From Thermodesulfobacteriota bacterium (lineage in GTDB: Bacteria > Desulfobacterota > WTBG01 > CAIYCZ01 > CAIRTM01): 64,000 bases of DNA. Under the pieces are notes generated by a model that made no database searches, was not told the DNA's origin, and saw only the letters and a list, made by a program, of their open reading frames with translations. Positions 6,001-19,904 of this stretch are shown here, in pieces (positions within the stretch are counted from its first letter, which is position 1; every line of letters begins with the position of its first letter). The stretch spans positions 10,711 to 74,710 of the forward strand of contig JANQFE010000096.1 of the NCBI GenBank assembly GCA_028278025.1. Direction: 5' to 3'. The translations under genes and the position numbers were made by a program.

Positions 6001-6423
6001 AGAAATATGCAAGCCGATACTGTCAGAGGAACTGATAGGTTCATTGACAGTTATGTAATAATTAACAATGTAGTAATAGCCATCTCCAGCAAGATCAACT
6101 TCTTGTGAGCCAATAGCAGTATCATTTTTTTTCAGTACAATATTAAACAGTGCTCCAGAAGTGTTATCCTCATTGAGTGCTTTTAATAACATTGTGCCTG
6201 ATATGTTTGAGTCTTCCAGTACAACTCCACCGGTAAGAAAACCTGAAAAGCTGATATCAAGTGAAGGTTGCCCAAGGTATTCTTCAGGTTCAGAACCATC
6301 ATAGGGTTGTGAAGTTAGCAGTCCGCCGCTGTTCAAATAGAGCCTCTCAATGGACTCGCTATATGCAAAGCTGCTTCCAAGGAGTATGGTTATTATGAGA
6401 ATTAAAGTTGTTAGGTGTTTCAT
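3007..6423 (-). CDS. Secreted multidomain metallopeptidase, M30 (hyicolysin)-like HEXXH family. Contains 2 Ig-like (I-set-like) domains, a PKD domain, two tandem Cys-rich repeats with poly-Asp stretches, and a conserved helical C-terminal domain (CTD-A).
   Basis: The ORF track gives 3007..6465 beginning at a TTG. The probable real start is ATG 6423 (MKHLTTLILIITILLGSSFAYS signal peptide) preceded by AGGAGA. Motif 'TTFIHEYQHMVNF...WITEMMSMASE' is paralogous to the 43544..45754 protein. PKD: 'ASPKSGKAPLNVQFTDQSKGDIYSWAWTFGNG'. C-terminus 'LLREFRDSVL...GREIINLYY'. Confidence 0.8.
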   Translation of the reverse strand: MKHLTTLILIITILLGSSFAYSESIERLYLNSGGLLTSQPYDGSEPEEYLGQPSLDISFSGFLTGGVVLEDSNISGTMLLKALNEDNTSGALFNIVLKKNDTAIGSQEVDLAGDGYYYIVNYYITVNEPISSSDSIGLHISSACNQDELRSVMLDGDYPEYSKIDFPIEPSSVAAPPEITNQPDDQEVYIGEIAVFSVEADGDDLQYQWLKDGYHIPDATFSSYTTPPVTFADDGSEYSCIVSNSAGSVESDWAELSVIEETIEPPQITSHPESQTVEEGDTARFSVKAEGDDLQYQWQKNYTDISGATKSKHTTPPVSSDDNGDLFRCVVSNVEGSRTSSSARLTVTSKAPEAAFTASPKSGKAPLNVQFTDQSKGDIYSWAWTFGNGKTGSGKNISHTYDEPGTYQATLTVKGSGGTDTASATIAVFPIEENDSDYLVAINIKAEDDEQTEPSGSLPGSNFSQAAPSFKTRDSNRSFYLQDVPMPKCDASLIYKTRKLLEQKSRTVKIASQTFNLDDKKDFWVLGDRVAATLKKEGRYGYIFVETTLSIPDDILELYITEFDVMYELVRSKIGEYTDRDHNGKVSILLCNLGNNGLGGFFAPYDYYAQEILDAEGIDRKSNEMDLLYVNGNYANNYYHKYILTTFIHEYQHMVNFCETGWNLGRDGFSSDIWITEMMSMASETMYLKAKLEDDPSFTNPEMLNDGYLTRITYYNDDKNKTIRNGHGLTWWDSNNDEDRLANYALAYIFGQYLAIHSSINDKIFKEILDYMVEHGVGDYQAVEAVASKRLPNVDTWEDLLKNWALANLLNDRSGPYGYKGEFILTAHGPTSSRVNIHNGGVVYRKISESYTCPTGAGSNIRFFEQDGSNVCDSGSDDDDNDDSCPDGFSIDCGNGICCPDSHPYCLDGPYGGMCAKTQNPDPFCLDNPSDDSCCDAGDDDDDDDGSCPDGFSIDCGNGICCPDSHPYCQDEPYEGLCAKTPSPDSFCLDNPYDESCCGQTNPPPQGACPFAYMLGDTAAETSLLREFRDSVLGNTAAGREIINLYYTHFEELTAIISNDRSLRVKSLELLFQVLPEIQSAINGNAVNISKNNSEKINKMCTEVIKKASPALGSFINKLQQELNEGTLFNKLNIALLD

Positions 6424-6471
6424 CGATGGTCTCCTTTCATTAAAGAACTTACTTATTGTTTTCAAAAAGTT

Positions 6472-6499
6472 TAGTCGTCTAATGAAAAATTTTATTTCT
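6472..6499 (-). promoter_or_regulatory. ECF-sigma-type promoter motif (coding orientation AGAAAT-N16-GACGACTAA) upstream of the M30-like peptidase gene
   Basis: Plus strand 'tagtcg' at 6472-6477 and 'atttct' at 6494-6499, with a 16-nt spacer. This is one of five copies of the same motif in the window. Confidence 0.55.
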
Positions 6500-6560
6500 A
6501 AAAAAATAATTTTTTTGTGTAGGGAGACAGATATGGCTTTAGATGGCAGTATATATTAAA

Positions 6561-6598
6561 TATAAAAGCAATATATTAAATAATATATTGCTTTTATA
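6561..6598 (-). terminator. Perfect AT-rich palindrome (17-bp arms, 4-nt loop) immediately downstream of the 6619..7230 gene; putative terminator
   Basis: tataaaagcaatatatt-aaat-aatatattgcttttata read directly. Confidence 0.4.
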
Positions 6599-6618
6599 TA
6601 AATACTTAATAAAAAATA

Positions 6619-7230
6619 TTAATTAAAAAAGATTTTTCCTAATGAAATTTTTTCTTGTGAGAAATTGAAAATATTGTACTCATCAACGGGAGATACATTA
6701 TTACTGAAATTGTTGATATCAAAAATATCTGAGCCACATGTATTGGTGCAATGACTTTCAAGGACTGGATCCCCTGAGTTTGTAAGTGTCAATAAAAGGG
6801 TTATATCTTCATCGCAATCATTAATAGGTATACAGCCCTCAAAATTAGCTATAAAGTCGCCGTCAATATAAAGTTTTATACTGCAAATATCATCAGAAAT
6901 TTCTCTGCAGTCTGAATATTCTCCTGATTCTGCAGCCCATGTTCCTTCAGATGTTTTCAGGGTTGCTTCCAGAGATCTACCATTGCTGTAGGAAAGATTA
7001 TTAAAAAAGTTTAGATTTTTCTCAGAACCTCCCGGCCCTTGTTGACCTTTTGCTGCCCCTTCGATAACAACACAATTGCGGTCTGAAGCATACGCCTGAG
7101 CTGCAAAAGGGTAACATGGTGAAAATATCAGACTTAAAATCAGTAGAAGGCTCATATACATAGTGTATGATATAACCATTTTATTATACTTGAAGATAAG
7201 CACTGTTAGTTTTAGAAAGTTTGCATTCAT
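6619..7230 (-). CDS. Small secreted Cys-rich protein (paralog of 7432..7980), function unknown
   Basis: ATG at 7230 with AGGAGA 6 nt upstream. Hydrophobic signal-like segment. Shares 'NFFNN(L/I)(S/A)YSxGxS(L/M)xA(T/K)L(K/E)TS(E/A)GTW(A/T)A(E/D)SGEYSxC' and a conserved Cys framework with the next gene. Confidence 0.6.
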   Translation of the reverse strand: MNANFLKLTVLIFKYNKMVISYTMYMSLLLILSLIFSPCYPFAAQAYASDRNCVVIEGAAKGQQGPGGSEKNLNFFNNLSYSNGRSLEATLKTSEGTWAAESGEYSDCREISDDICSIKLYIDGDFIANFEGCIPINDCDEDITLLLTLTNSGDPVLESHCTNTCGSDIFDINNFSNNVSPVDEYNIFNFSQEKISLGKIFFN

Positions 7231-7297
7231 GATTATTCTCCTATTGTATCTGGTTATTATTTCAAAATTTTCAACATTATGGTTGTTTTAATAGATA

Positions 7298-7325
7298 TAG
7301 TCGCAGTTATGAAAAAAAAATTTCA
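7298..7325 (-). promoter_or_regulatory. ECF-type promoter motif (TGAAAT-N16-CTGCGACTAT) upstream of the 6619..7230 gene
   Basis: 'tagtcg' at 7298-7303 and 'atttca' at 7320-7325, about 60 nt upstream of the ATG. Confidence 0.5.
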
Positions 7326-7431
7326 ATGATTCTCAAAAAAAGAAAAAAAGCCATCACAATTGTTGAGATGGCTTTCTAATAACTATTAGGAAAAGATGCC
7401 AGTGTTAAAGAACACTAACAAGTTTGATCAT

Positions 7432-7980
7432 TCAAAAAACAAGAGGTAGAAGAGGCTCCAGATCATCATTTTCACCTTCATCATTTAAATTACTAAAAAG
7501 ATCAATTTCAACTTCTATATTAATTATTGAAGCTGTATCAACTATATCAGCAAATCCTTCAAATGATTGTACATTCAAGATATCATTACCGCAATCATCA
7601 TGGCAGATCAACTTGAGAACAAAAGTGGAAGACCCCTCTAAAGTGAGCAGTAGTGTAGCATCAGTGCAATCTTCAATGTCAAGGCAATCATTAAAAGCAA
7701 ATTTATAATCACCATCAAAATAAACTCTAATGTCACATATTGAATTGTTTGAAACGGATTTGCAGCTCGAGTATTCGCCCGAATCTGCCGTCCAAGTGCC
7801 TGCAGAAGTTTCCAGTTTTGCAGACATGCTGTTTCCGCTGGAGTAGGCAATGTTATTAAAAAAATTAACACTATGAGGTGAACTGTTGCCACCCCCGCCT
7901 CCATCATCACCATCACAGCCAATCAAGGAGATTGATGCAATAATTGTTACAATATAAACAATACACTTAATTTTCTTCAT
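7432..7980 (-). CDS. Small Cys-rich lipoprotein (paralog of 6619..7230), function unknown
   Basis: ATG at 7980 with an AAAGGA SD. Lipobox 'SLIGC'. A Gly run follows, then the same conserved Cys pattern as the upstream paralog. Confidence 0.65.
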   Translation of the reverse strand: MKKIKCIVYIVTIIASISLIGCDGDDGGGGGNSSPHSVNFFNNIAYSSGNSMSAKLETSAGTWTADSGEYSSCKSVSNNSICDIRVYFDGDYKFAFNDCLDIEDCTDATLLLTLEGSSTFVLKLICHDDCGNDILNVQSFEGFADIVDTASIINIEVEIDLFSNLNDEGENDDLEPLLPLVF

Positions 7981-8103
7981 GGGATGTTCCTTTCATTAAG
8001 TTAAAATAAAATTGTTTTTGAATGCAAAGTGCTTATAAAAAAATCTCAATCCTCCTTCCTGTTTTGAATTTTTTAAAAAAAGCAGTTTTTGTACTGTTAT
8101 TGT

Positions 8104-8131
8104 TAGTCGCAGGAAGTAAAAAATTATTCTA
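8104..8131 (-). promoter_or_regulatory. ECF-type promoter motif (TAGAAT-N16-CTGCGACTAA) upstream of the 7432..7980 gene
   Basis: 'tagtcg' at 8104-8109 and 'attcta' at 8126-8131. Confidence 0.55.
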
Positions 8132-8210
8132 AAAAAATATTTTTTAGCAGATTTATTAAATTTAATGGGCATGAACAGGAATAAAGATATAAATAGCTGA
8201 TTAAGGCAGG

Positions 8211-8248
8211 AATAGTTAATTCCCGCCTATAGGCGGGAATTAACTATT
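8211..8248 (-). terminator. Perfect 38-bp palindrome (aatagttaattcccgcc-tata-ggcgggaattaactatt) between the lipoprotein gene and the promoter of the next gene; putative terminator or operator
   Basis: Read directly. No canonical U-tract on either side, so a protein-binding site is equally possible. Confidence 0.35.
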
Positions 8249-8279
8249 AGTAAAAAAGTAAGATGTAAGTATGTACCGT

Positions 8280-9005
8280 TTATTTTACAGCTATAATCTG
8301 CGGTTGCATTTCATACTGCGAATCAAGGCGTGCAATGCTGGTGGCCTGTATCTGGGCCACACGTTCAAGCAGCTTACTGCTTACAAAGGACCTGTATGAA
8401 TACTCAACCTTATCGGAAAACTCAGTGGTTATACCGGGATCATGATTTTGTGAATAGACCGCGCCGGCGCCCAGTGCACAAAGCCCCCACCCCGGGGCAA
8501 ACCAGCCCAGCAGAGAGGTTGCCGCACCTCTGCTGAAACTGGTGTATCTGATTTCATATGGAGTAACAATATTAAACTGATTGATTAATCTGCCGGTTTT
8601 AGGGTCAAGCACACGCACATCAGTATCAACTTCTATATAATACTTATACCCGAGCCAGGCATGCGAAAAGACCAGAAAGCCGGGAAATGCGATAGGAATA
8701 TTTTGAAGGGATGATTTATACTTAACTGTTTTATTAAGATCGCATATATAATCAAGGTCCATCCCGGCAGATGTATGACAATCCTTTTTTACGGCCTCAA
8801 CTGAAGAAGAAAGGCTTGTCTCGCTAATAATGGACCTGAGCAGGCGGTCCTGGGTCGGTGCAAATCCAAGTTTAACTGTTTCTCTTTGATAGGCATTTAC
8901 GGGTGTAAAAACATCTCTGTTGGTAACTTTAAGCGGGTGAGTGCACCCCATTGCTGCAAAAATGCTGGTGGCCAGTAAGCATATAATTTTTGTTGCTGTT
9001 TTCAT
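8280..9005 (-). CDS. Lipoprotein of unknown function
   Basis: ATG at 9005 with an AAGGAG SD. Signal 'LLATSIFAAMGC' (lipobox). Confidence 0.6.
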   Translation of the reverse strand: MKTATKIICLLATSIFAAMGCTHPLKVTNRDVFTPVNAYQRETVKLGFAPTQDRLLRSIISETSLSSSVEAVKKDCHTSAGMDLDYICDLNKTVKYKSSLQNIPIAFPGFLVFSHAWLGYKYYIEVDTDVRVLDPKTGRLINQFNIVTPYEIRYTSFSRGAATSLLGWFAPGWGLCALGAGAVYSQNHDPGITTEFSDKVEYSYRSFVSSKLLERVAQIQATSIARLDSQYEMQPQIIAVK

Positions 9006-9146
9006 TTTTTTCTCCTTTTGTGTATTGATTAAGTAGTTTTTTTTATTGTAATTTTAAAGCTGCAAACTGACTGATTAAGTAATTAATATTTTTCAAAATT
9101 CACCTCCTTTCAGGTAATCTAAAACTTTATTTGATTTTGATAGTAT

Positions 9147-9174
9147 TAGTCGCAGGAGTCTGAAAAATATTCCC
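9147..9174 (-). promoter_or_regulatory. ECF-type promoter motif (GGGAAT-N16-CTGCGACTAA) upstream of the lipoprotein gene
   Basis: 'tagtcg' at 9147-9152 and 'attccc' at 9169-9174. Confidence 0.55.
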
Positions 9175-9276
9175 GAAAGGAGTAATTTTTTATAAAGATG
9201 AGATGTTACCAGCCCAGCTTTGTTAAGTTTGATTTTTATGAAGCAAAAAAGAGAAGAGGCAAGAAGGGAAAGGCAG

Positions 9277-12108
9277 CTAATATGTCATAATGTCAGCAGA
9301 TTCAAAGATATTCTTAATGGTTTTTTTCTTTAGGTATGGTTTTACAAGTGAAAGATTATGTTTCAAAGTTGGAGGAGAGCTTTTTTGCAAGTCTATAAAA
9401 GCCTGCATCAAGCTGTTAACAAGTTCTTGGGGAAGTGCAACAGATTTATTCTTAAGGGCAGTATCTGTGATTAGAGCAGCAGAAGAAATTAATTCTAAAC
9501 AGCGCTGACTAAGTTTGGGATCTTTTTTTATAATATTCCAAACACCACAGGCTAAATCATAGTAGAGATCAACCAGCTGCCTTCCCGCTGGTGATTTTAC
9601 TAATATTTCATCACGAAACATCCTGAGTAGAATCAAATGATTATTCTGAGAAGTTTTTTCTACTAAATATTTAACAGGGCAGGTGCTGTTGTCCGGAGAT
9701 GTTCCGTTGTCATCATCATCATTTTCACCGACAACAGGCTTCATAATAATATCCTTATATACAACAGAACCGGGTGTGACCACTACAAGCGGAGTTGTTT
9801 CCTGGGTATAATATTTATGGTCTGATGACAGCATATGTTCACCGGCAGAGGCCAGGACTTCATAATAACCATCATGGTCACTGGTGTACTCGGGGCTGCC
9901 CTTGCAGGTAACGGTGGCATTATCGAGCAGATCTCCGGAGTCTGTTTTAACATATCCGTGAATTAAACCTATCAAACCTGATGAGGCCTCAAATAGCCCA
10001 GATGATGTACCTGCAAAGATAGGAGATAACGATAAAGGGGCACTTTTTTTAAGATGCAGGACTCGCGCAGATGTGCTGCCGGAAGCTGCTGAAGTATTTG
10101 CGTTTATGGTATGCAGGCTGTGCCCTGTAAGGCCTGCCTTGTTCCAGTACTCCCCGCCGTTGAGGCTCATATACACACCGCCAAAACTTACAAGGTCTTT
10201 ACGGTAGGCCATTGATAAACCTTGATAAACTATGTTGCTGTCTGATTTGTCGACACTAATGTCGGCTATGGTAAATTTCTCGGGCAATCCTTCAGATTTG
10301 TTTAACCAAGACGAACCACTGTCAGTGCTTTTGTAGATTCCGTTGCTGCGGCAGGCAGCATAAATTATATCAGGAGAAGAAGGTGCAAGTGCCAGCGCAT
10401 TTACGACTTCTTCATGTAAAGCTGTCTGCGACCACGTATCACCGCCATCAGTGCTTGCATACAGACCACCTGGCTTAACAGGAGAATAAACGTTCCCGGC
10501 ACCTGCAAAAATAATAGTTGAATCCTGTTGATTTACGGCAAGAACATTAATATCACAATCTGCCTGAAGCACTGTTTCAATTGTGCTTTTAGAGAAATTT
10601 TTTTGAGGGTCATCATCTATTCTTACAATCTGTCCTTTCGTGCCTGAAGAAAAACCAACCGCAGCTAAAACAATATCATTACCGGTTTCTTTCTCAATAA
10701 CGGCAATTGAATTTATGGAATTTGTATTAATAAGGTCCGGTAAATAGCGATACTGCCAGGTTGTGCCGCTGTCAGTGCTTTTTCCAAGTTTCCAAGCAAA
10801 ACCGGCATAGATAATATTTTTATCTTGAGGGTGAAAGCGAACAGCTTTACTAGAGTTTTTTTCAATGTGCTTCCATTCAGTATCAGTTTTAAGAAAAACA
10901 CCCGCAACAGTGCTCGCTACGATAGTTGAGGAATTATCAGGAGCAAAATCAGTTGAAAAAATTGCATTTGCCTTAATCCCGCTGTTTATAGTTTCCCAGG
11001 TTTCAGCGCCGTCGTTTGATTTAAAGATGCCGTTATGAATGCCGCCGGCATATATAGTATCTGGATTAAAGGGGTCTGATGCCAGCTTATAGAAATCATC
11101 AGGGGTTTCAAAAAAGTCCCAGGTAGCACCTTTATCAACGCTTTTAGCAATTGTTTTACCGGCAAGTCCAGCGAAGACGGTATCAGGTTCGGAGTTTGGA
11201 ATGCATAAAGTGTATGTAGGCTCGGCTAGCGATGTCCAGTACCAAGAACCGCTTTTAAGCGGACCGTCAACCTTGCGGGCTACACCTTTTGATCCACATG
11301 TAAAAAGAACAGATGGGTCAGAAGGATGAACTGCAATTGAGCCAAGCCAGCCAAACGAGCCAGAACCTTCATCTCCATAGGCTTCTGACCAGCTATGCCA
11401 TGTTGTACCGTTATCAGGGGAAACATACACAATGCCGTTTGTTTCAAACACACCCCATGATGAAGAAATTCCCCACAATTCACCAGGTTGTTGAGGGTTG
11501 ATGCCCAGGTCAATAATCGCATAAGGTGCCTCAAGGGACATTTCTTTGAAAAGAATAGACCCCTCAGTGCTTCGATAGAAATAACCGTAGCCATTATCAC
11601 TTGTTGGCCCGGTTCCAATATATATTGTATTACCCGTAGAATCGTGTGGATCAACTTCAACATTATGGCAAAAAAGCTTTGAAAATACTCCGTTAATGAA
11701 TCCGATATTCCATGTTTCACCATAATCGTAGCTGACATCAGTAAACATATTGGATGACACCCATATGGTTGACGGGTTGTTCGGATCAATATCAATGTCA
11801 AAAACTTCACGGTTGCGAAACCAGGTGTTGTTGTCGGTGGGGATTGTAATCCATGTCTGACCGCTGTCAGTGGTTCTGAACAGGCCGTCACCGTTCCAGC
11901 TGCCGGCATACAGTATCGAGCTGTCATCGGGATCAATAGCAAGGGATAGAATCTGACCGCCATACAGCCCCAAGTCTTCCCAATAAGAGTTTTCCTGTTG
12001 AGCATGTGCAGGGCAAAAAGTGCAAAATAGGATTAAAGGCACACAAAATGCAACATATGTGCAAAGTATTATAGAGTTGAGGGTGTTGAATATTTGATAT
12101 AATTTCAT
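9277..12108 (-). CDS. Secreted BNR/Asp-box repeat protein (sortilin/Ycf48-like beta-propeller repeats), followed by a carboxypeptidase-regulatory-like domain and the conserved C-terminal domain (CTD-B)
   Basis: The ORF track's 9277..12348 overlaps the upstream gene. The real start is ATG 12108 (MKLYQIF...CPAHAQQ signal). Eight or more S/TxDxGxTW motifs (TTDSGQTW, SYDYGETW, SPDNGTTW, VDKGATW, SNDGAETW, STDSGTTW, STDGGDTW, STDSGSSW). C-terminus 'LRMFRDEILVKSPAGRQLVDLYY'. Confidence 0.8.
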   Translation of the reverse strand: MKLYQIFNTLNSIILCTYVAFCVPLILFCTFCPAHAQQENSYWEDLGLYGGQILSLAIDPDDSSILYAGSWNGDGLFRTTDSGQTWITIPTDNNTWFRNREVFDIDIDPNNPSTIWVSSNMFTDVSYDYGETWNIGFINGVFSKLFCHNVEVDPHDSTGNTIYIGTGPTSDNGYGYFYRSTEGSILFKEMSLEAPYAIIDLGINPQQPGELWGISSSWGVFETNGIVYVSPDNGTTWHSWSEAYGDEGSGSFGWLGSIAVHPSDPSVLFTCGSKGVARKVDGPLKSGSWYWTSLAEPTYTLCIPNSEPDTVFAGLAGKTIAKSVDKGATWDFFETPDDFYKLASDPFNPDTIYAGGIHNGIFKSNDGAETWETINSGIKANAIFSTDFAPDNSSTIVASTVAGVFLKTDTEWKHIEKNSSKAVRFHPQDKNIIYAGFAWKLGKSTDSGTTWQYRYLPDLINTNSINSIAVIEKETGNDIVLAAVGFSSGTKGQIVRIDDDPQKNFSKSTIETVLQADCDINVLAVNQQDSTIIFAGAGNVYSPVKPGGLYASTDGGDTWSQTALHEEVVNALALAPSSPDIIYAACRSNGIYKSTDSGSSWLNKSEGLPEKFTIADISVDKSDSNIVYQGLSMAYRKDLVSFGGVYMSLNGGEYWNKAGLTGHSLHTINANTSAASGSTSARVLHLKKSAPLSLSPIFAGTSSGLFEASSGLIGLIHGYVKTDSGDLLDNATVTCKGSPEYTSDHDGYYEVLASAGEHMLSSDHKYYTQETTPLVVVTPGSVVYKDIIMKPVVGENDDDDNGTSPDNSTCPVKYLVEKTSQNNHLILLRMFRDEILVKSPAGRQLVDLYYDLACGVWNIIKKDPKLSQRCLELISSAALITDTALKNKSVALPQELVNSLMQAFIDLQKSSPPTLKHNLSLVKPYLKKKTIKNIFESADIMTY

Positions 12109-12142
12109 TTTAAAAAAAAATCTGCACATAGCGTTCATGCAC

Positions 12143-13495
12143 TTAAAAATGAATAATAACTGATGCCATAAACAGATGCTGGGTAACATCCGCATCAGTT
12201 GAAGGTATATCCAGAACCTCTCCCTCAACATCCTCTCCCCGGCGAAACTGGTAGGCAAAATCAAAAACAAGCCTTCCAGCTGAAAAACCTGTGCCCAGAG
12301 AAAATCCCCAGAAATCTTCAGGGCTTTTATTAGACGGCTCAGGATCATAAAAAAGTCCGCAACGCAACGGAATGATGGTTTTTACAAATATAAGGAGATA
12401 TTCTGCACCCAGTCTAATCTGGTGGGTTGCATTAACATGACTATCTTGTGAAGACTCACCGGTGATAGGACTTTTACGTTTGCCTTTACCGTTTTCAAGC
12501 ACAAAATGAGACCATTCAGTTCTGTGTACATCGAGTGAAAGAGTAAGTGTATCAGAAAAACGTAATGCAATCCCAAACCCATACGATAGGGGTATTTCAA
12601 GATCAACATCCTCGTCTATACGTGTTACCGAAGTGCTGGCAAAGCCTGTGGGCGGCTTCATTGTGATTTTTCCCACACGTTCATGCTGCAATTCACCGGT
12701 AAAGGGGGTCTTAATAACGCCGCCGATTGTTATATACCTGTTGATGTCCCATAAAAAACCAATATGCATGTTAAAACCGGAAAAGCCGTAATACCTGTCG
12801 CGGTCTTTAGATTTAAACTTTGTCGGTGCTCGTCCCGGACGAGATATTGCACCTGTAATAATAGTATCCGACTCCCAACCGTTACTCCAAAAAAGATTGT
12901 CAGTCCAAATATTGCATGTAAATCCAAAAGAAATATCGGGGGTAATTTGAATGGCATAAGCAGGAGATAGCGCACTCAGTTTGCCACGCTGGCGGAAATC
13001 CATATGCTGCTCGAAACGAACGGCAGGATTGTTAGACCGGGTAATAAAATCTGTTTCAATATTGCGATCAAATTCATAAAGGCGCTGGTAGTTAAGCGAA
13101 ACAATCATGTTGCGCTGAAACAGTTTGAAAGGATAAGCAATGCTCAAGTAATTAAGGTCTTTGCTGAGACTTCGCTGCAGTCCAGCCGCTTCAGGGTGAC
13201 TTTTTGAACTGTAATCCTCACGACGTCTGAAATAAGAAAACGCAAAAGAAATCTCGGGCTTACGCAGTTGAGTCAGACCGGCAGGATTCCATGAGGCTGC
13301 GGTGGCATCATCTGCAACAGCAATAAAGGCGCCCCCCATACCAACAGCGCGGGCACCTGAGCCAACAGGGTTGGGTGATGATGCTATAGTAATTTTTTGA
13401 GGTGCAGTTTGTGCCGAAACTGCAGTACACAATACGCCACCTGTAAGGCATAAAAAAATGAAATAAAAAAAACAGCGTAGAAGAAACAGTCTCAT
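12143..13495 (-). CDS. FadL/TodX/OMPP1-family outer-membrane beta-barrel (hydrophobic-substrate transporter family, which also contains T9SS PorV)
   Basis: Signal peptide. 'GMGGAFIAVADDATAASWNPAGL', the family-typical NPAGL N-terminal motif. C-terminal aromatic (..HF). The ATG overlaps the stop of the upstream gene (ATGA coupling). Confidence 0.8.
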   Translation of the reverse strand: MRLFLLRCFFYFIFLCLTGGVLCTAVSAQTAPQKITIASSPNPVGSGARAVGMGGAFIAVADDATAASWNPAGLTQLRKPEISFAFSYFRRREDYSSKSHPEAAGLQRSLSKDLNYLSIAYPFKLFQRNMIVSLNYQRLYEFDRNIETDFITRSNNPAVRFEQHMDFRQRGKLSALSPAYAIQITPDISFGFTCNIWTDNLFWSNGWESDTIITGAISRPGRAPTKFKSKDRDRYYGFSGFNMHIGFLWDINRYITIGGVIKTPFTGELQHERVGKITMKPPTGFASTSVTRIDEDVDLEIPLSYGFGIALRFSDTLTLSLDVHRTEWSHFVLENGKGKRKSPITGESSQDSHVNATHQIRLGAEYLLIFVKTIIPLRCGLFYDPEPSNKSPEDFWGFSLGTGFSAGRLVFDFAYQFRRGEDVEGEVLDIPSTDADVTQHLFMASVIIHF

Positions 13496-15618
13496 TTTGT
13501 GATTACTTTATCATTAATCTTAAGGTCTCGTTCTGTAAATTTTTCAAGAATCTTACCTTTAGCAAATTCTTTATTGACCTCTGTTGCAGTCACCAGCCCG
13601 AGAACCTCTGTTTTTCGGCCAAGTATTTTTTTTGTAACAGGATGTATGAGAGGGTCATTTTCTCTGAAGGCCAGAAGCTTCATGCCTGTGCATAAAGAAT
13701 GAGAGCTGCCAAGATCAATTGTTATGCTGCGTAATTTTTTACTGATTATGGTTCCTTCACACAAAGGAAAATGTTGTTTAAATTTAAGCGCAAGTCCTCC
13801 GATAGCATCACGAAGACCACGCAGATTTTCTCCTTCCCAGTATACGTCCTTTTCAGCCAGGATAAGGGATGTTTCCGTATCTACCATACGTGCAATAATT
13901 TCCACAGATTGTTCAGTTGTAAAAATGTCTCCAAGCAAAACTGTTTCAGATGCCATCAAACGGCCAAGACGAATAGCGGTCTGCTGATCAAAGATAGATT
14001 CCTGAGAGAGTTGCTGTTCAGTAAGCAATTGCTCCAATTGCTTTCTTTCAAGCACATTAAACCGTTTCTGCTGCACGAAGCATTTGGTTAGAAAAGATTC
14101 AATATAATCAGCCAGAGGCTCAGTATTTTGTTTGCTCTCTCTAAAAGGATAAATTGAAACAGTTAGGCGGGAGCCAACTTGTCGAATTGCAGGAATTTTT
14201 CTAATTACGGAAACAGCCTTGGTTATAGTTAAACCCTTGTGGTCAATAAGTTCAACAGAGACGGTATTTGCCTTTTCGTGCAGCTGTATAAGTTTGCTAA
14301 AGGAAAGTGTTTTCCTGGTGCTCTTGCCGAGCTCTCTTAAAAATGCCTTAAAAGATTTGTTCATGTCGGACTGTAGAAGTGATTGACCATTAACCCTTAT
14401 ATCTTTTATTCCCGCCGGAGTATAGACAAAGCCCTCAAGAAAAAGTGTATCTGATAAAACAGTTTGACCATCTTCACAGCCCTTCAGCTGAATATAAGGT
14501 TGTGACGGATGAGACGTTTGAGAATGGTAAGCTGTGAAATTACGTTCTGTTTGTCCAGAAGGTATTTTCATGACAGGAAGTGCTTCTCCAGAATATGCTA
14601 TAAGGGGTAATTTTGACGGAGGGCAGGAACTGGTTGACGAAACAACATGGATGAATCCGGTTGTGTGATTGCCGGCACGGTCTACTGCAACAAACTGAAT
14701 TTTATTCCCGCCTGATAATGTGTCCGACCTTACATAATAATTAATTTTTTCAAATTGCTTGTAACCAATCGGCAGATTGTTGTTGTTGATTGTAACTTTT
14801 GAGAGGGCTGAACTGTCAAAAACTGCACCACTGATATGGATTGTGTTATTGCCATCAGGCCTGGCTTCCAGAAAAACCAAAGGACCATTTCGATCAACCG
14901 TTACCTCAAACTTTACCGGAGGTGATTTTTTTTCAGTTAAATCCTCTGCCTGGACTGTAATAAGATTTTTTCCGTCATGAAGAATGATTTCTTTATGAAA
15001 TGTGACATCTTTTTGTGAAAGTTCAAGTGAAGTGGGGTTTCCGTTAACCAAGATTTTTGAAACATAGAAATCATCATGTGCAGAGCCGCTTACATTCATT
15101 GATAAGCTGCTGGTTACATAATCACGAGTGGGTGTAACCACTGCAAGGGTAGGTGGCATAGTATCTAAGCCTGTTTTTTTAAGCAGCTTTTGCCGGGCCT
15201 TATTAAGGTAAAATACAGCCCGGGCAGTTTTGAAATCTGAAAGAGATGCCTCAAGAGACTGAATGGCTTCTTCATGATTACCAAGATGATAACAGGCTAT
15301 TCCCAACTCACGTTTAGGGAAATAGTCTATAAAATGCATTCCATAAGTGCGGGCTCTGCGCTGATCCTTATCTCGCTGGGCAATTGCCTGTTTAAAATCT
15401 GATGAAGCGTCCTGCCAGAAGCCTCCCTGGCTGTATGAAAGACCGCGAAGGTAGTAATCGTTCCATTTTTCTTTAAAAAGGCCATCAACTGTACCGTAAA
15501 GCATGCCGTCCTTTTCGTAGACCGTGCTTTCTTTTACAGCACAGCTGTATTGCAGAAATGCAAAAATGACAGTGAAAACAAAAAAAATAGAATATATCTT
15601 TTTATATAACCAGCACAT
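13492..15618 (-). CDS. Lipoprotein with N-terminal TPR-like region, central Ig-like/beta region and C-terminal CsgG/HfaB-like domain
   Basis: ATG at 15618. 'FNVLERKQLEQLLTEQQL...AIRLGRLMASETVLLGDI' resembles the CsgG core LERxxLxxLLxE ... lG..lGAdylv.G. Confidence 0.55.
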   Translation of the reverse strand: MCWLYKKIYSIFFVFTVIFAFLQYSCAVKESTVYEKDGMLYGTVDGLFKEKWNDYYLRGLSYSQGGFWQDASSDFKQAIAQRDKDQRRARTYGMHFIDYFPKRELGIACYHLGNHEEAIQSLEASLSDFKTARAVFYLNKARQKLLKKTGLDTMPPTLAVVTPTRDYVTSSLSMNVSGSAHDDFYVSKILVNGNPTSLELSQKDVTFHKEIILHDGKNLITVQAEDLTEKKSPPVKFEVTVDRNGPLVFLEARPDGNNTIHISGAVFDSSALSKVTINNNNLPIGYKQFEKINYYVRSDTLSGGNKIQFVAVDRAGNHTTGFIHVVSSTSSCPPSKLPLIAYSGEALPVMKIPSGQTERNFTAYHSQTSHPSQPYIQLKGCEDGQTVLSDTLFLEGFVYTPAGIKDIRVNGQSLLQSDMNKSFKAFLRELGKSTRKTLSFSKLIQLHEKANTVSVELIDHKGLTITKAVSVIRKIPAIRQVGSRLTVSIYPFRESKQNTEPLADYIESFLTKCFVQQKRFNVLERKQLEQLLTEQQLSQESIFDQQTAIRLGRLMASETVLLGDIFTTEQSVEIIARMVDTETSLILAEKDVYWEGENLRGLRDAIGGLALKFKQHFPLCEGTIISKKLRSITIDLGSSHSLCTGMKLLAFRENDPLIHPVTKKILGRKTEVLGLVTATEVNKEFAKGKILEKFTERDLKINDKVITK

Positions 15619-15660
15619 TGCTTTTGTCTCAACCTTTAAAGCATCATGTAATAAACAAAA

Positions 15661-17778
15661 TTAATTAGATTCAACAACTCTCAGGCCTGGTACAATATTT
15701 TTTTTACTGCTAAGAATAGTCGCATACGAGTGATCCGGCATTGTTTGTACAGTCTTCAGCAATCCTATATGCTCCTTGTCATATGCAAGAGAAAGGTCAG
15801 ATTCGGCTAAGGAGTCATTTGTTGGAAGGATTGAGAAATCAGTACCCACTTGAACGCCACTGTCTGCACCGATGTTTAGCAGGACTTTTTCATTTTGCAA
15901 ACGGATGATTTTACCTTTAACTGGATAGAGGGACCTTGCTTCTTTTATAAGGGAGTTTGATAAATTATTAACAATAACCTTGGCGGCCCTGTTATCCAAC
16001 TCCTCATGCAATGCAATAATAATTTTAGAAGTGTCAGTTTCAAAAACACGTAAATTGACAGTAGTCAGATTTTTCAGCTTTACAATTTTTCCAACACCAA
16101 TGAGCCTGGCACCCATAAGCTTGCCGAGCATGGCAAGTGCCAAGGACTGATCGGCAATATCTGAGGTGCTGATCTGCAATTCTTTCAGCAGGGCGTTGAT
16201 TTTTTCACGCTCTACGAGTTGAACCCTGCCTGTGTTTATGAGTTCTCTGGAAAGGCTTGTGGTAAAGTATTGTTCAAGATTCTCACTGTCTTTAATGTTG
16301 CCAACACAGCTAAATCCAAGTATTGACATCGTCAAAGGGCTTGATGTCCATGAATCTACAGGATGTGATGAGCCCTTTATTTTTTTTTGTTTTTCATATT
16401 TTTCAGTAAGAGCTTTTAGAATAACTCGAATATTATCAGTAGAAGGTTTTACGGACTTAACGGCAGTTATAGAAGTTTTGTCAGTATGTTTTTGTTTAAG
16501 AAAAGGAAGTTTATCATGAGAGAGAAAAAGCAGAATAAATATTGCAGTTAAAAAAATGATGACAGAAGAAATTGTAAAGTTAAAGGTTTTGCGGTCAAGA
16601 GGAAGTGATCTTGTTGATCCTGTTGCAAGGGCCTCTTTATGCGTAGACATTTCTTCATAGGGCAGTTTTTTGTCTGCAGAAGAAAACTGGTTGTCATCAA
16701 GATAATTGAAAGATGGATGGCCATACAGAACATAGCTTGCCCAGATAATATTGCTCTCACCGTAAATGGAAATAAGATGCTCGCGAGACTTTTTTACAGC
16801 CTCTCCAATACAACAACCTTGGATAAGTTTTTGATAAAAACAAACAGAAAATTCACGGCTTGCATCATCCAGGACTTCCCAGAAGGTGCCGATGTAATGC
16901 AGTACTCCTGACACTAGAAATGAATGCGCAAGGCCGAAGATGTTAGTTTCAAAATCTTCATTAAGTTTCCATTCAAGTGTCTGGCCTGACTGGCAGGCAT
17001 TGGCAAAGATAAGATTAGGGAAAGGCCTGTTGCGCGACATGTGCATGATATCATGTGAAGTGAATTTACCGTTTTCCAGCAGCCAGCCGCTTTGTGAAGG
17101 ATCAGCAGCAACATAATCAGCATGGCCTGCATAGTGAATAATATCATAGTTGCGTATGTAGTCCCTTAATGTGGAGTTGTTGACTCTTCGATTAAAAAGA
17201 TCTGCGTGTATTAGTGCGGGGCTTTTATCCAGTTCAGATCTAATAAGGCTACCTTCAATGTAAGCATTTTCAAGATCGCCACTGGGGTCACACAAAATTA
17301 GAATTTTTAAGGGCGACGAGATCTTTTTGGGTTTTGGCTTGACGATGTTTTGATGGGTGCGCACAACCCTGCCTACATTAAATTTCCTGCAAAGGAAATC
17401 GCTGCCGTCATACAAAAGTTCCCAGGGAATATGGACCAGTCCGTCATCAATATTAATGATAAGGTTTTCAGAAGCAGTTTTGGAAAGCTCTTTTTGAACA
17501 TTGTGGGGCAATAAATCTTCAAAAAGCGAGAAACCGGTATTCTTTAATTGAGCAAGATTTTCTCCGGCAAGTGCGCCTCTCAGATTAGCATTGTTAAGCA
17601 GTCGGGTAAATTCTTTGCATTTATTAGTTATAAGATATGGATCAATGGTTTGCTCTGAAATATGTCTTAGCGTATCCTCTTCTATGTTTGTCTTAGTAAA
17701 GATACCAACCTTCAGACGGGTATGCTCTCGTGATAATTCAATTTCAATTGTTTTTTGCTGGTGGTCGTGTGTGCTCAT
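15661..17778 (-). CDS. CHAT-domain (caspase-like, clan CD) peptidase fused through a TM helix to a C-terminal CsgG-like domain
   Basis: ATG at 17778. 'HYAGHADYV' and 'FANACQSGQ' are the His/Cys dyad motifs of CHAT/caspase-HetF. TM helix 'VIIFLTAIFILLFLS'. C-terminus 'VQLVEREKINALLKELQ...LAMLGKLMGARLIGVGKI' (CsgG-like). Confidence 0.7.
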   Translation of the reverse strand: MSTHDHQQKTIEIELSREHTRLKVGIFTKTNIEEDTLRHISEQTIDPYLITNKCKEFTRLLNNANLRGALAGENLAQLKNTGFSLFEDLLPHNVQKELSKTASENLIINIDDGLVHIPWELLYDGSDFLCRKFNVGRVVRTHQNIVKPKPKKISSPLKILILCDPSGDLENAYIEGSLIRSELDKSPALIHADLFNRRVNNSTLRDYIRNYDIIHYAGHADYVAADPSQSGWLLENGKFTSHDIMHMSRNRPFPNLIFANACQSGQTLEWKLNEDFETNIFGLAHSFLVSGVLHYIGTFWEVLDDASREFSVCFYQKLIQGCCIGEAVKKSREHLISIYGESNIIWASYVLYGHPSFNYLDDNQFSSADKKLPYEEMSTHKEALATGSTRSLPLDRKTFNFTISSVIIFLTAIFILLFLSHDKLPFLKQKHTDKTSITAVKSVKPSTDNIRVILKALTEKYEKQKKIKGSSHPVDSWTSSPLTMSILGFSCVGNIKDSENLEQYFTTSLSRELINTGRVQLVEREKINALLKELQISTSDIADQSLALAMLGKLMGARLIGVGKIVKLKNLTTVNLRVFETDTSKIIIALHEELDNRAAKVIVNNLSNSLIKEARSLYPVKGKIIRLQNEKVLLNIGADSGVQVGTDFSILPTNDSLAESDLSLAYDKEHIGLLKTVQTMPDHSYATILSSKKNIVPGLRVVESN

Positions 17779-17835
17779 TATATACTGTTTCTTAATAAAG
17801 TTGTCTGATTAGTTTATGCAGCTAATGCAGAGATG

Positions 17836-18705
17836 CTATTGAATCAGAAATTGAACTCTTTTGATTTCCCTGCGGTTTCTGGATAATACTATATGATAAG
17901 TTCCAGGAGATATATCCTTAAACAGCGCCTTACCATCTTCTAGGAAGAGCGACACTATTTCGAGGGTATCATGAAACAAAGAAACTCTGATATTATCAAG
18001 AGAAGAGCGTAGGCCTGATGTTGAGAGAAAAACCAACACTTCAAATTTTTGTTTCTCAAGTTCTTCTATTTCAATTTTCAGCTCAATTCCCCCGGACCTG
18101 TCCATGATAATGGATATGTTTTCCTGGAGTTTTCTTTTACCCTTTCGAACCATTATAAGCTGCGGTTCAGATTGAGGAATAAAAAGTTCGGCAACAAAAT
18201 CCCTGCATTTTTGGAGAATGGATTTAGTAAGGTGTATCATTTGTGTGCTTAATGAAGTGTCAGTGCTTTTGCTAAGAGGATATTCCCGTGAGACTGCTTT
18301 AAGAAAACTATGCAGCCCATCTACTGGTTCCTTATGAAAAGTCATTTTTTGCATATCCTGCTCAAGATCAAGAAGCTGTGAGAAATATCTGTTACAGTCA
18401 GTACAACTATTAAGGTGTTGTTTAATTTCTTTTAGGCCCTTATCAGATAGCATTTCTCTCTGGTTAGCATACGCGACAAGAAGATCAGGGTCAATACAAC
18501 TGGAATCTGCATATTTTTCTGCAAGAACTGTCCTGTGTGTTGATAATGCGGCATCAATTTCACGCAGTTTTATAATCTCATGTCTGCATGCGGAGCACCC
18601 ATCAATATGTGCTGCAAGCGTTTTCATATCATTGCCGTTTAACTGCTTTTCAAGATAAAGCAGTAATTTGTCATTGAGCTCAGGTTTATCACATTGTGCT
18701 TTCAC
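17836..18705 (-). CDS. Anti-sigma factor, zinc-finger (ZAS, HxxxCxxC) type
   Basis: GTG start at 18705 overlaps the sigma stop (GTGA). 'HIDGCSACRHE'. Second Cys pair 'CTDC'. Position is immediately downstream of the ECF sigma gene. Confidence 0.65.
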   Translation of the reverse strand: MKAQCDKPELNDKLLLYLEKQLNGNDMKTLAAHIDGCSACRHEIIKLREIDAALSTHRTVLAEKYADSSCIDPDLLVAYANQREMLSDKGLKEIKQHLNSCTDCNRYFSQLLDLEQDMQKMTFHKEPVDGLHSFLKAVSREYPLSKSTDTSLSTQMIHLTKSILQKCRDFVAELFIPQSEPQLIMVRKGKRKLQENISIIMDRSGGIELKIEIEELEKQKFEVLVFLSTSGLRSSLDNIRVSLFHDTLEIVSLFLEDGKALFKDISPGTYHIVLSRNRREIKRVQFLIQ

Positions 18706-19304
18706 AAAAGATCTCCCTTGTTTTGTTCACAAAGGTTTCTCAACTCCAACAAACAGCGTTTCAGTCGTGACGCCACAGTGCCCATAGGAATATTAAGGGT
18801 AGATACAATTTTGTCATATGAAAAGTTATCAAAATATTTTAGTTTTATGATCTCACGGCACTTTGTTCCTATATTATCAAGAGCTGATGTCAGCAGCTCA
18901 CGTGTCTCGGTGCATTCAAGATGGTCATAAAAAGAAGAGTGCGTGTCTTCCAGTACCAAGCGGGGGGAGCCATCTTCATCTGCAGCATCAATTGACAAAC
19001 AGTTTTTTTCCCCCTCACGTTTTTGGGCTGTGATTTTTCTGATTTCTGAAACACATTTGTTTTTAGCGATATTTGAAGCAAAGGTTTCAAGAGAACAGTC
19101 AAATTTGAACGATTTTAATGAAGTGACAAGACCGGTAAATACTTCCTGTATTATTTCCTCTGCATCCTCAAAGTCAAAATTCCATTTTTTCCAATGGGCA
19201 ACGAACCGGATAGTATTATAGGTTCGTTTATAGAGGATGGACCAGGCTTCTTCGCTGCCGGTCAGGCATTGCGTAACAAGTTCTTTATCATCCTGCACTG
19301 CCAA
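18702..19304 (-). CDS. ECF-family RNA polymerase sigma-70 factor
   Basis: Sigma-70 region 2 ('EAWSILYKRTYNTIRFVAHW...EDAEEIIQEVF') and region 4 ('YFDNFSYDKIVSTLNIPMGTVASRLKRCLLELR'). The ORF track starts at 19460. A GAGGAGG SD 8 nt upstream of TTG 19304 gives an ECF-typical length of about 200 aa. Confidence 0.85.
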   Translation of the reverse strand: MAVQDDKELVTQCLTGSEEAWSILYKRTYNTIRFVAHWKKWNFDFEDAEEIIQEVFTGLVTSLKSFKFDCSLETFASNIAKNKCVSEIRKITAQKREGEKNCLSIDAADEDGSPRLVLEDTHSSFYDHLECTETRELLTSALDNIGTKCREIIKLKYFDNFSYDKIVSTLNIPMGTVASRLKRCLLELRNLCEQNKGDLL

Positions 19305-19876
19305 GAATGTTTCCTCCTCAAAGATATATATAACCAGATAACAAAAAGCTTTTGTATCTATAGATAAACATAAGCAATGCCTTTTCTCTGGAAGGTAGAT
19401 ACAGTAAACTGTAATATGATTGTGGTTTTGACGTCTGTTTGCTCTAATATTTTTTCTCATTTTTACATAAATTGCAATAAATAAACAGGATTAGAATTAT
19501 TTTTATTATAATCTATAATTAATTAGCTATTGTTAAAATTTTATTTCCCTTTTGGTGCAATGCTTAAAAGACATAATTAGAATACAATGAAAAATGGAGT
19601 TTCTCTAATATCTATTGTCGCAATCTGAAATAATTTGTTTCTAAAAAATGATTTATTTATTCAATCAACATAACAATCATTTTTCGCTCAGTTGATGCTG
19701 TTGGAAACAAGACCACATTTAATGCAGATGATTTCAAATGAAATGAGAAGTTTTATCAAGTGAGGTTTTTTCCTCAGGTGATAGCGAAGAACTAAAATTT
19801 TATTTAAAATATGATGGTTTAGAAAATTTTGCATAATGTTCACCTTTAGTGTTGGGTTGTTACTATTCAATGAATT

Positions 19877-19904
19877 TAGTCGCAAGAAGAATGAAATTAT
19901 TCTG
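19877..19904 (-). promoter_or_regulatory. ECF-type promoter motif (CAGAAT-N16-TTGCGACTAA) upstream of the sigma/anti-sigma operon; candidate autoregulatory promoter
   Basis: 'tagtcg' at 19877-19882 and 'attctg' at 19899-19904. It lies about 570 nt upstream of the proposed sigma start. Confidence 0.5.

Follow-up and report, generated by a model that had tools for sequence, protein, structure and literature searches.

The 64,000-nucleotide stretch analyzed here (hereafter the window, whose coordinates are used throughout) comes from a Thermodesulfobacteriota bacterium (contig JANQFE010000096.1), and all scans of this genome's DNA cover those 64 kb. Its minus strand carries a cluster headed by a sigma factor gene of the extracytoplasmic function (ECF) type, followed by genes encoding an anti-sigma factor, a CHAT (caspase-like) protease and further envelope or exported proteins, and then by four genes that each stand alone and encode a lipoprotein, two Cys-rich paralogs and a metallopeptidase-like multidomain protein (Table 1). 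By pattern search and direct reading, we found six copies of a promoter-like, two-block motif in the window, all on the minus strand, all intergenic and all co-oriented with the minus-strand genes downstream of them; two copies lie 5′ of the sigma/anti-sigma/CHAT operon and four lie 5′ of the single exported-protein genes. A first-pass annotation of this DNA had listed five minus-strand copies, at 6472-6499, 7298-7325, 8104-8131, 9147-9174 and 19877-19904, the last of them as the only one in front of the sigma operon. All five are present, including that distal copy, but a sixth copy, at 19613-19642 and proximal to the sigma gene, had gone unnoticed (its match to the sharper pattern described below is 19615-19641, GAAACAAATTATTTCAGATTGCGACAA), such that the operon is preceded by two copies.

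Alignment of the sites on CGAC gave the fixed-register consensus G(A/G)AA(T/C)AATTT-N9-TGCGACTA, in which AA(T/C) is separated from CGAC by exactly 16 nt. The string AA(T/C)-N16-CGAC is found in 14 of 14 aligned sites (the six in the window and eight from other genomes), with A, A, C, G, A and C, as well as the 16-nt gap, invariant, and the motif is asymmetric, with neither dyad nor direct-repeat symmetry. The ECF architecture with a 16-nt spacer that had been described earlier holds: an AA(T/C) -35 core is followed by a T-tract, a fixed 16-nt gap and a CGAC -10, and this AAC-like -35, CG-containing -10, fixed gap and orientation with the gene constitute an ECF-type promoter layout. The letters of the earlier consensus needed correction. 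At 6472 and 7298 the sequence is GAAAT instead of GAAT (AAAT-N16-CGAC in the common register), the copies at 6472 and 19877 contain AGACGACTAA and TTGCGACTAA, respectively, rather than CTGCGACTAA, and the copy at 7298 ends in CTAT. Nor is the -10 "GTC-containing", since the block is CGAC(T)A, without GTC on the promoter strand, and is not of the GTC/CGTC type. Counted from the end of CGACTA as far as the start codon, the four single-gene copies lie 48, 67, 123 and 141 nt from their genes, in agreement with the earlier estimate of 40-140 nt, and the distal sigma copy, placed earlier at about 570 nt, lies 572 nt from the sigma TTG at 19304.

The search pattern suggested in the first-pass annotation (GAAT-N16-CGACTA, one mismatch allowed) gave 5 matches in the window versus 2.6 expected, and 12 of 100 shuffles gave at least 5, such that its count alone is not significant. 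With a sharper pattern, GAA[AT]-N16/17-CGAC[TA]A, exactly 6 matches were obtained versus 0.80 expected from dinucleotide-preserving shuffles (n = 500), none of which reached 6, and shuffling of the AT-rich sub-regions alone gave an expectation of 0.033 matches. All 6 matches fall in the 16% of the window that lies outside open reading frames (ORFs) of at least 150 aa. Pairwise identity among the six sites is 0.32-0.34 in the flanks, which is the background level, and 0.38 in the spacer, rising to 0.63 for the -35 block and 0.79 for the -10 block. Conservation is thus confined to the two blocks; selection acts on them, and the copies did not arise by duplication of intergenic DNA. We also constructed a weight matrix exclusively from eight foreign sites at orthologous loci (three further loci, obtained later, are outside this matrix). 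Among ~128,000 positions, the window sites ranked 1-4, 6 and 7, with scores of 13.8-25.3; the maximum in random sequence averaged 11.4, and 0.135 matches were expected at a score of at least 14.4, a cut-off attained by five window sites, with the remaining one at 13.8. Two other high scorers (58098 and 24994) were rejected, being located within ORFs and having no CGAC.

A protein search returned 26 relatives of the sigma factor, and we gathered their contigs from metagenomes and metagenome-assembled genomes (MAGs); two related records are labelled Thermodesulfobacteriota and Deltaproteobacteria, and the remainder are metagenome contigs. All 11 ortholog loci whose upstream DNA is long enough (L004, L007, L008, L009, L011, L012, L013, L014, L055, L056 and L057) have one copy of the motif 5′ of the sigma gene; it is on the coding strand and 243-570 nt away from the canonical start. 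Sigma factor identity at these loci is 52-58% where measured, and their GC content is 41-53%, versus 35% for the part of the window (18-20 kb) in which the sigma gene lies. Judged from sequence, this is a strong cross-genome footprint for an ECF target promoter. The two window copies and the copy at each of the 11 loci are what would be expected of an autoregulated ECF sigma factor, and the positive autoregulation that had been proposed from a single copy draws its support from this recurrence 5′ of orthologous sigma genes rather than from that one copy. A matrix built from all 14 sites gave 0 matches scoring at least 12 (maximum 8.8) in 334.8 kb of 39 ortholog-free loci, which include sister-clade sigma genes at 38-48% identity (L017-L022 and L050). 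A motif-like sequence, TGGAATGGTTTC-N9-TTGCGTGTGTA, located ~435 nt 3′ of the sigma gene in the sister clade (L017, L019-L021), was rejected as evidence of co-variation because conservation extends well past it in both directions, as is probable for coding sequence. One foreign copy precedes a gene other than that for the sigma factor: L004 has a second copy, at 19340-19367, 130 nt 5′ of a beta-propeller gene that follows the cassette described below.

Each of the two window arrangements at the sigma gene has a counterpart elsewhere. L013 and L014 each have a single copy, located 299 nt from the TTG and 155 nt from an in-frame ATG equivalent to the one that lies 154 nt from the proximal window copy. 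The single copy of L056 resembles the distal window copy: it lies 570 nt 5′ of the sigma gene and precedes a well-supported 64-aa small ORF, after which comes a hairpin. The window therefore appears to combine the two arrangements as tandem promoters. A small ORF also follows the motif in the other loci where the distance to the sigma start is long (430-572 nt in the window, L056, L011 and L008). The encoded peptide is hydrophobic in the window, L056 and L011, the short ORF of L008 has no evident hydrophobic stretch, and the sequences are not conserved; the L056 ORF (2742-2936) has a strong ribosome-binding site.

Table 1. Motif copies, genes and hairpins of the putative regulon in the window, in the order in which the minus strand is read.
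Feature	Coordinates	Strand	Remarks
Motif copy, distal sigma (CAGAATAATTTCATTCTTCTTGCGACTAAA)	19875..19904	-	572 nt 5′ of sigma TTG 19304; 42 nt 5′ of the 48-aa small ORF; foreign-matrix score 19.5, second in window
Small ORF, 48 aa (MQNFLNHH...)	19688..19834	-	Hypothetical, status uncertain; directly 3′ of distal copy; ribosome-binding site AAAGGTG
Motif copy, proximal sigma (AGAAACAAATTATTTCAGATTGCGACAATA)	19613..19642	-	310 nt 5′ of sigma TTG; 154 nt 5′ of in-frame ATG 19460; score 18.5, third in window
ECF sigma factor, 200 aa	18702..19304	-	TTG start, ribosome-binding site GAGGAGG; same sequence as database protein P0001
zf-HC2 anti-sigma factor, 289 aa	17836..18705	-	Start overlaps sigma stop codon by 4 nt
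CHAT (caspase-like) protease, 705 aa	15661..17778	-	N-terminal CHAT, one membrane helix (401-419), C-terminal CsgG/LpoB-like domain
Exported protein with TPR repeats, Ig-like domains and CsgG/LpoB/FlgO-like domain	13492..15618	-	Syntenic in L004, L012, L014
FadL/PorV-like outer-membrane beta-barrel	12143..13495	-	Toluene_X 6.5e-17; PorV/BamG below cut-offs; syntenic in L004, L014
Exported BNR/sortilin-type repeat protein	9277..12105	-	CFI-box-CTERM-like C-terminal domain; probably last gene of sigma operon
Motif copy (GGGAATATTTTTCAGACTCCTGCGACTAAT)	9145..9174	-	141 nt 5′ of lipoprotein ATG 9005; score 14.4
Lipoprotein, 241 aa	8280..9005	-	Lipobox AAMGC; predicted core CsgG/LptE/PelC-like fold
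Hairpin, 17 bp, terminator-like	8212..8248	-	Follows lipoprotein gene; no T-run after it; -26.3 kcal/mol, z -7.2
Motif copy (TAGAATAATTTTTTACTTCCTGCGACTAAC)	8102..8131	-	123 nt 5′ of Cys-rich lipoprotein ATG 7980; score 16.9
Cys-rich lipoprotein, 182 aa	7432..7980	-	8 Cys
Intrinsic terminator, hairpin and T-run	7345..7377	-	z -3.75
Motif copy (TGAAATTTTTTTTTCATAACTGCGACTATA)	7296..7325	-	67 nt 5′ of Cys-rich paralog ATG 7230; score 25.3, top in window
Cys-rich secreted paralog, 203 aa	6619..7230	-	46% identical to the 182-aa protein
Terminator-like hairpin	6560..6599	-	Follows 203-aa gene; z -5.6
Motif copy (AGAAATAAAATTTTTCATTAGACGACTAAA)	6470..6499	-	48 nt 5′ of peptidase ATG 6423; score 13.8
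Secreted multidomain protein, 1138 aa	3007..6423	-	Ig/PKD, HExxH metallopeptidase region, duplicated Cys-rich modules, CFI-box-CTERM-like C-terminus

The sigma factor matches Sigma70_r2, Sigma70_r4_2 and Sigma70_ECF (88.8 bits against TIGR02937, cut-off 42.9) and, with regions 2 and 4 present, region 3 absent and a length of ~200 aa, belongs to the ECF (group 4) sigma-70 factors. Its nearest solved relatives in a PDB sequence search are E. coli sigma-E (1or7, E 1e-8), AlgU-like factors and SigW. Scores against the named NCBIfam ECF subfamilies (RpoE, SigW, SigX, SigM, SigK, Sig70_bacteroi1 and others) all fall far below the cut-offs (e.g., 75.9 vs 126.4 for TIGR02985 and 50.5 vs 236 for RpoE), and no other sigma gene related to it occurs in the window. 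All nine loci checked (the window and eight orthologs) keep the TTG start together with its ribosome-binding site. The sigma reading frame is nevertheless open for 43-102 codons 5′ of the TTG in the window (region 19305-19460) and in the nine orthologs checked, and an in-frame ATG occurs 42-84 codons 5′ of the TTG in nine loci (the window, L004, L007-L009 and L011-L014). A jump in GC content at the upstream ATG in 7 of the 9 loci (e.g., from 0.18 to 0.47 in L013) and the lack of indels within two groups of close relatives speak for a coding extension, while an amino-acid sequence that is unconserved across groups and a conserved ribosome-binding site and TTG speak against it. It is possible that the upstream frame encodes an N-terminal extension of ~50 aa, perhaps making the product a pro-sigma factor, or that it accommodates a conserved TGcTATGAT extended -10 housekeeping promoter.

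The anti-sigma protein scores 32.7 bits against zf-HC2 (cut-off 22.2), and its HIDGCSAC sequence fits HxxxCxxC, placing it among the class I, zinc-binding anti-sigma (ZAS)-type factors; neither it nor any of seven orthologs contains a membrane-spanning segment, and it is thus not of the RseA/RsiW type. The CHAT protein scores 102.8 bits against PF12770 and is predicted to be a CHAT (clan CD) peptidase with an intact His-Cys pair, HYAGHAD and NACQ(S/T)G being kept in the window protein and four orthologs. In the same five proteins, all of which lack a signal peptide, a single membrane helix is followed by a conserved CsgG/LpoB-like domain. Because the CHAT domain is N-terminal and the protein lacks a signal peptide, the protease domain is probably cytoplasmic. 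A PDB sequence search with the CHAT protein returned no match. The small intergenic gaps and the absence of motif copies between 19613 and 9174 suggest that the genes from sigma through BNR probably form one operon. The cassette of five genes encoding the sigma factor, anti-sigma factor, CHAT protein, TPR/CsgG-like protein and FadL/PorV-like barrel is syntenic wherever the contig reaches (L004, L009, L012, L013, L014, L016 and L055), and the anti-sigma and CHAT proteins each have a gene of their own, both in the window and in the six ortholog loci extending as far as the CHAT gene.

When the genome collection was searched with the FadL/PorV-like protein, only two distant loci were found, L001 and L002, neither of which has the sigma gene or the motif. 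L001, which is from the same MAG as L004, carries a paralogous cassette at 5230-19306 without a sigma gene, anti-sigma gene or motif. In addition to TPR/CsgG-like and FadL/PorV-like proteins, this cassette encodes one protein of 908 aa and another of 2588 aa that has a shared C-terminal domain; the envelope module can thus exist without the sigma switch. This domain, of ~120 aa (CPxxY...LRxFRDxxL...G..LYY), is common to four window proteins (3010-3429, 9280-9699, 31791-32030 and 43550-43930, minus strand) and resembles NCBIfam CFI-box-CTERM below its cut-off. In the window, L004 (17534-19249) and L001 (11540-19306), the gene after the CHAT/TPR/FadL-like cassette has this domain at its end, which hints at a functional link between the cassette and proteins with the domain.

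All four proteins encoded downstream of the single-gene copies have signal peptides or lipoboxes. The HExxH region of the 1138-aa protein is M30-like but falls below the Pfam cut-off. Structure models support no functional call: the lipoprotein model (predicted local distance difference test [pLDDT] score 63) shows a generic CsgG/LptE/PelC-like lipoprotein fold, and the Cys-rich protein is modelled as a generic beta-sandwich at low confidence, with one of five models reaching pLDDT 57. Three of the four putative target promoters directly follow strong hairpins, forming a repeated terminator-promoter-gene module in which the downstream genes would need promoters of their own. A generic sigma-70 and terminator scan gave counts equal to those of shuffles and missed these three AT-rich hairpins, which were later confirmed by folding; no Rfam family or tRNA was found in the window, and folding of the four targets' 5′ untranslated regions gave no significant structure (z -0.01 to +1.45). 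Strong AAGGAGG sequences resembling ribosome-binding sites are present on the minus strand in the leaders of the lipoprotein gene (~9100-9112) and the 182-aa Cys-rich gene (~8045-8056), 70-100 nt 5′ of the annotated starts, which have ribosome-binding sites of their own; the one at 9100 is followed by a possible 16-codon ORF with a TTG start. Within the peptidase gene, a 189-nt tandem duplication (3431-3808, 78% identity) encodes two Cys-rich modules (SCPDGFSIDCGNGICCPDSHPYC...) flanked by poly-Asp runs.

Together, these data suggest, with a probability that we put at roughly 85%, that the six sites are promoters read by RNA polymerase containing the ECF sigma factor encoded at 18702-19304. 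Region 4 of the sigma factor would bind the G(A/G)AA(T/C) -35 block and region 2 would bind the TGCGACTA -10 block located 16 nt past AA(T/C), with an A/T-rich tract after the -35 block, and transcription would start ~6-9 nt after CGACTA. The two copies at 19875-19904 and 19613-19642 would drive the operon encoding the sigma factor, the anti-sigma factor, the CHAT protein, the TPR/CsgG-like protein, the FadL/PorV-like barrel and the BNR protein, resulting in positive feedback, and the other four copies would drive single-gene units for the lipoprotein, the two Cys-rich paralogs and the Ig/PKD metallopeptidase. Several observations weigh against this interpretation. Only one non-sigma target site was found in the foreign loci, the sigma-proximal sites are unusually distant from the canonical TTG (243-570 nt), and the -35 block ends in T more often than in the canonical C. 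The Cys-rich targets have no homologs (none outside this genome for the 182-aa protein), and the lipoprotein homologs in L052, L053 and L054 have no upstream motif and occur in different gene contexts, such that target membership seems to be lineage-specific and offers no cross-check. Finally, the extent of the regulon can be stated for the 64-kb window only, and we infer promoter activity, start sites and dependence on this particular sigma factor from sequence.

The sites could instead be promoters of another alternative sigma factor encoded elsewhere in the genome, either an ECF paralog with overlapping specificity or a factor of the sigma-28/FliA type. The sigma-28/FliA consensus is TAAA-N15-GCCGATAA, which the AAAT-N14-TGCGACTAA of the sites loosely resembles, and the genes downstream are not flagellar genes. 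ECF regulons do overlap in B. subtilis (PMC5758882), and the link between the sites and the adjacent sigma gene rests on sequence, with 64 kb of the genome in view; however, the motif accompanies the orthologous sigma gene in all 11 loci and is absent from the 335 kb of loci without an ortholog, even those with sister-clade sigma genes, and a competing sigma gene of related type does not occur in the window. We therefore regard a different sigma factor as an unlikely reader of these sites.

Less likely still is that the motif is the operator of a DNA-binding repressor or activator. Conserved upstream motifs can be transcription-factor sites, and no housekeeping-type promoter was mapped for the target genes, but the motif lacks symmetry, its two blocks keep the invariant 16-nt spacing typical of -35 and -10 elements, it is always oriented with the gene, and it follows terminators, where a promoter is needed. 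Moreover, the conserved neighbor of the motif is the sigma gene, and no transcription-factor gene is conserved beside it. That the copies reflect chance similarity in AT-rich intergenic DNA, or remnants of a duplicated gene together with its upstream segment, might be suspected from the yield of the loose one-mismatch pattern and from the fact that two targets are paralogs. This explanation is effectively refuted by the AT-rich shuffles, the background identity of the flanks, the recovery of the sites by a matrix made from foreign genomes and the lack of matches in the ortholog-free loci.

An autoregulated ECF regulon with a -35/-10 motif is a well-known phenomenon, and the promoter logic proposed here is textbook ECF biology. 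Less ordinary are the combination of a soluble anti-sigma factor with a membrane-anchored CHAT protease in one cassette and the open upstream frame on the sigma gene. As with the operon limits, we infer the mechanism of sigma release. In the resting state, the soluble zinc-finger anti-sigma factor would hold the sigma factor, and release would require the membrane-anchored CHAT protease that is conserved alongside, together with the envelope partners of that protease. The CsgG/LpoB-like domain, the TPR protein and the FadL/PorV-like barrel would be the route by which an envelope signal is perceived. We tentatively propose, as a possibility that we consider less probable than its alternatives combined, that the CHAT protease, once activated by such a signal, cuts the soluble anti-sigma factor (or possibly an N-terminal sigma pro-sequence of ~50 aa), freeing the sigma factor for GAAT-N16-CGACTA promoters. 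The five-gene cassette would then constitute an undescribed envelope-spanning pathway and a CRISPR (clustered regularly interspaced short palindromic repeats)-independent counterpart of Craspase Csx29/Csx30/CASP-sigma. The analysis provides a testable promoter consensus, G(A/G)AA(T/C)AATTT-N9-TGCGACTA, for an uncharacterised ECF sigma clade and a first list of candidate targets for this sigma factor (the secreted metallopeptidase, the lipoprotein and the two Cys-rich proteins, which are lineage-specific), and the defined promoters would be ready reporters for testing the CHAT/anti-sigma cassette. If the anti-sigma/CHAT pairing is functional, control of sigma factors by caspase-like proteases, as with DdvA and Craspase, would extend to envelope signaling outside phage defense.

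The motif is most readily compared with ECF promoters of B. subtilis, which have a tGAAACnTTTt -35, a stimulatory T-tract beside it and a CGxC -10 (PMC5758882), CGAC being the -10 of the sigX autoregulatory promoter (PMC5758882). Like the sigX, sigW, sigM and sigV promoters (PMC5758882), the sites described here have an AAC-type -35 with G/A before it, a T-tract close to the -35 and a CGxC -10 after a gap of 16-17 nt. An autoregulatory promoter 5′ of the sigma gene, putative in the window, and a regulon of envelope proteins are further common features. They differ in that T is usually the final base of the -35 core here (GAAT/AAAT) and the -10 extends further, as TGCGACTA, in that the sigma factor is only distantly related (far below the cut-offs of the SigX, SigW and SigM models), and in that the anti-sigma factor is soluble, whereas RsiW and RsiX are membrane proteins. 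E. coli sigma-E (RpoE), the factor with the nearest solved structure, is, as proposed for the factor described here, an autoregulated ECF factor for envelope and exported proteins and is freed by proteolysis of its anti-sigma factor. RseA, however, is a membrane-spanning protein cleaved first by DegS and next by RseP, whereas the anti-sigma factor here has no membrane segment and its conserved neighbor is a CHAT protease; the sigma-E promoter consensus, GGAACTT-N16-TCnnA, also differs from the motif described here.

Two systems connect CHAT proteases with sigma factors, and the cassette fits the definition of neither. The DdvS-DdvA pair of Myxococcus xanthus (PMC11506125) likewise combines an ECF sigma factor and a zinc-binding anti-sigma domain with a CHAT module, and the caspase-like module of DdvA has been proposed to start sigma release (PMC11506125). 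[quoted passage not shown] A PADLOC search with 10 locus proteins gave no convincing defense match, the only one being a marginal match of BovA to the CHAT protein (E 7e-4), and CHAT is not mentioned in the main text of the Casas-Pastor 2021 ECF classification (PMC7826278). In the Craspase of Desulfonema ishimotonii, a cytoplasmic TPR-CHAT protease, Csx29, cleaves a soluble sigma inhibitor, Csx30 (PMC10028731). As in the window, the ECF-like sigma factor of the Craspase system (Cas7-11, Csx29, Csx30 and CASP-sigma; PMC10028731) has motif copies inside its own locus. The window contains no CRISPR array, cas gene or CRISPR-like repeats, and the locus is thus not a member of the Craspase/CASP-sigma group. 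In contrast to Csx29, the CHAT protein here is membrane-anchored, has an envelope-side CsgG/LpoB-like domain and is accompanied by a TPR/CsgG-like protein and a FadL/PorV-like barrel, partners suggesting that this cassette responds to an envelope signal rather than an RNA-guided one.

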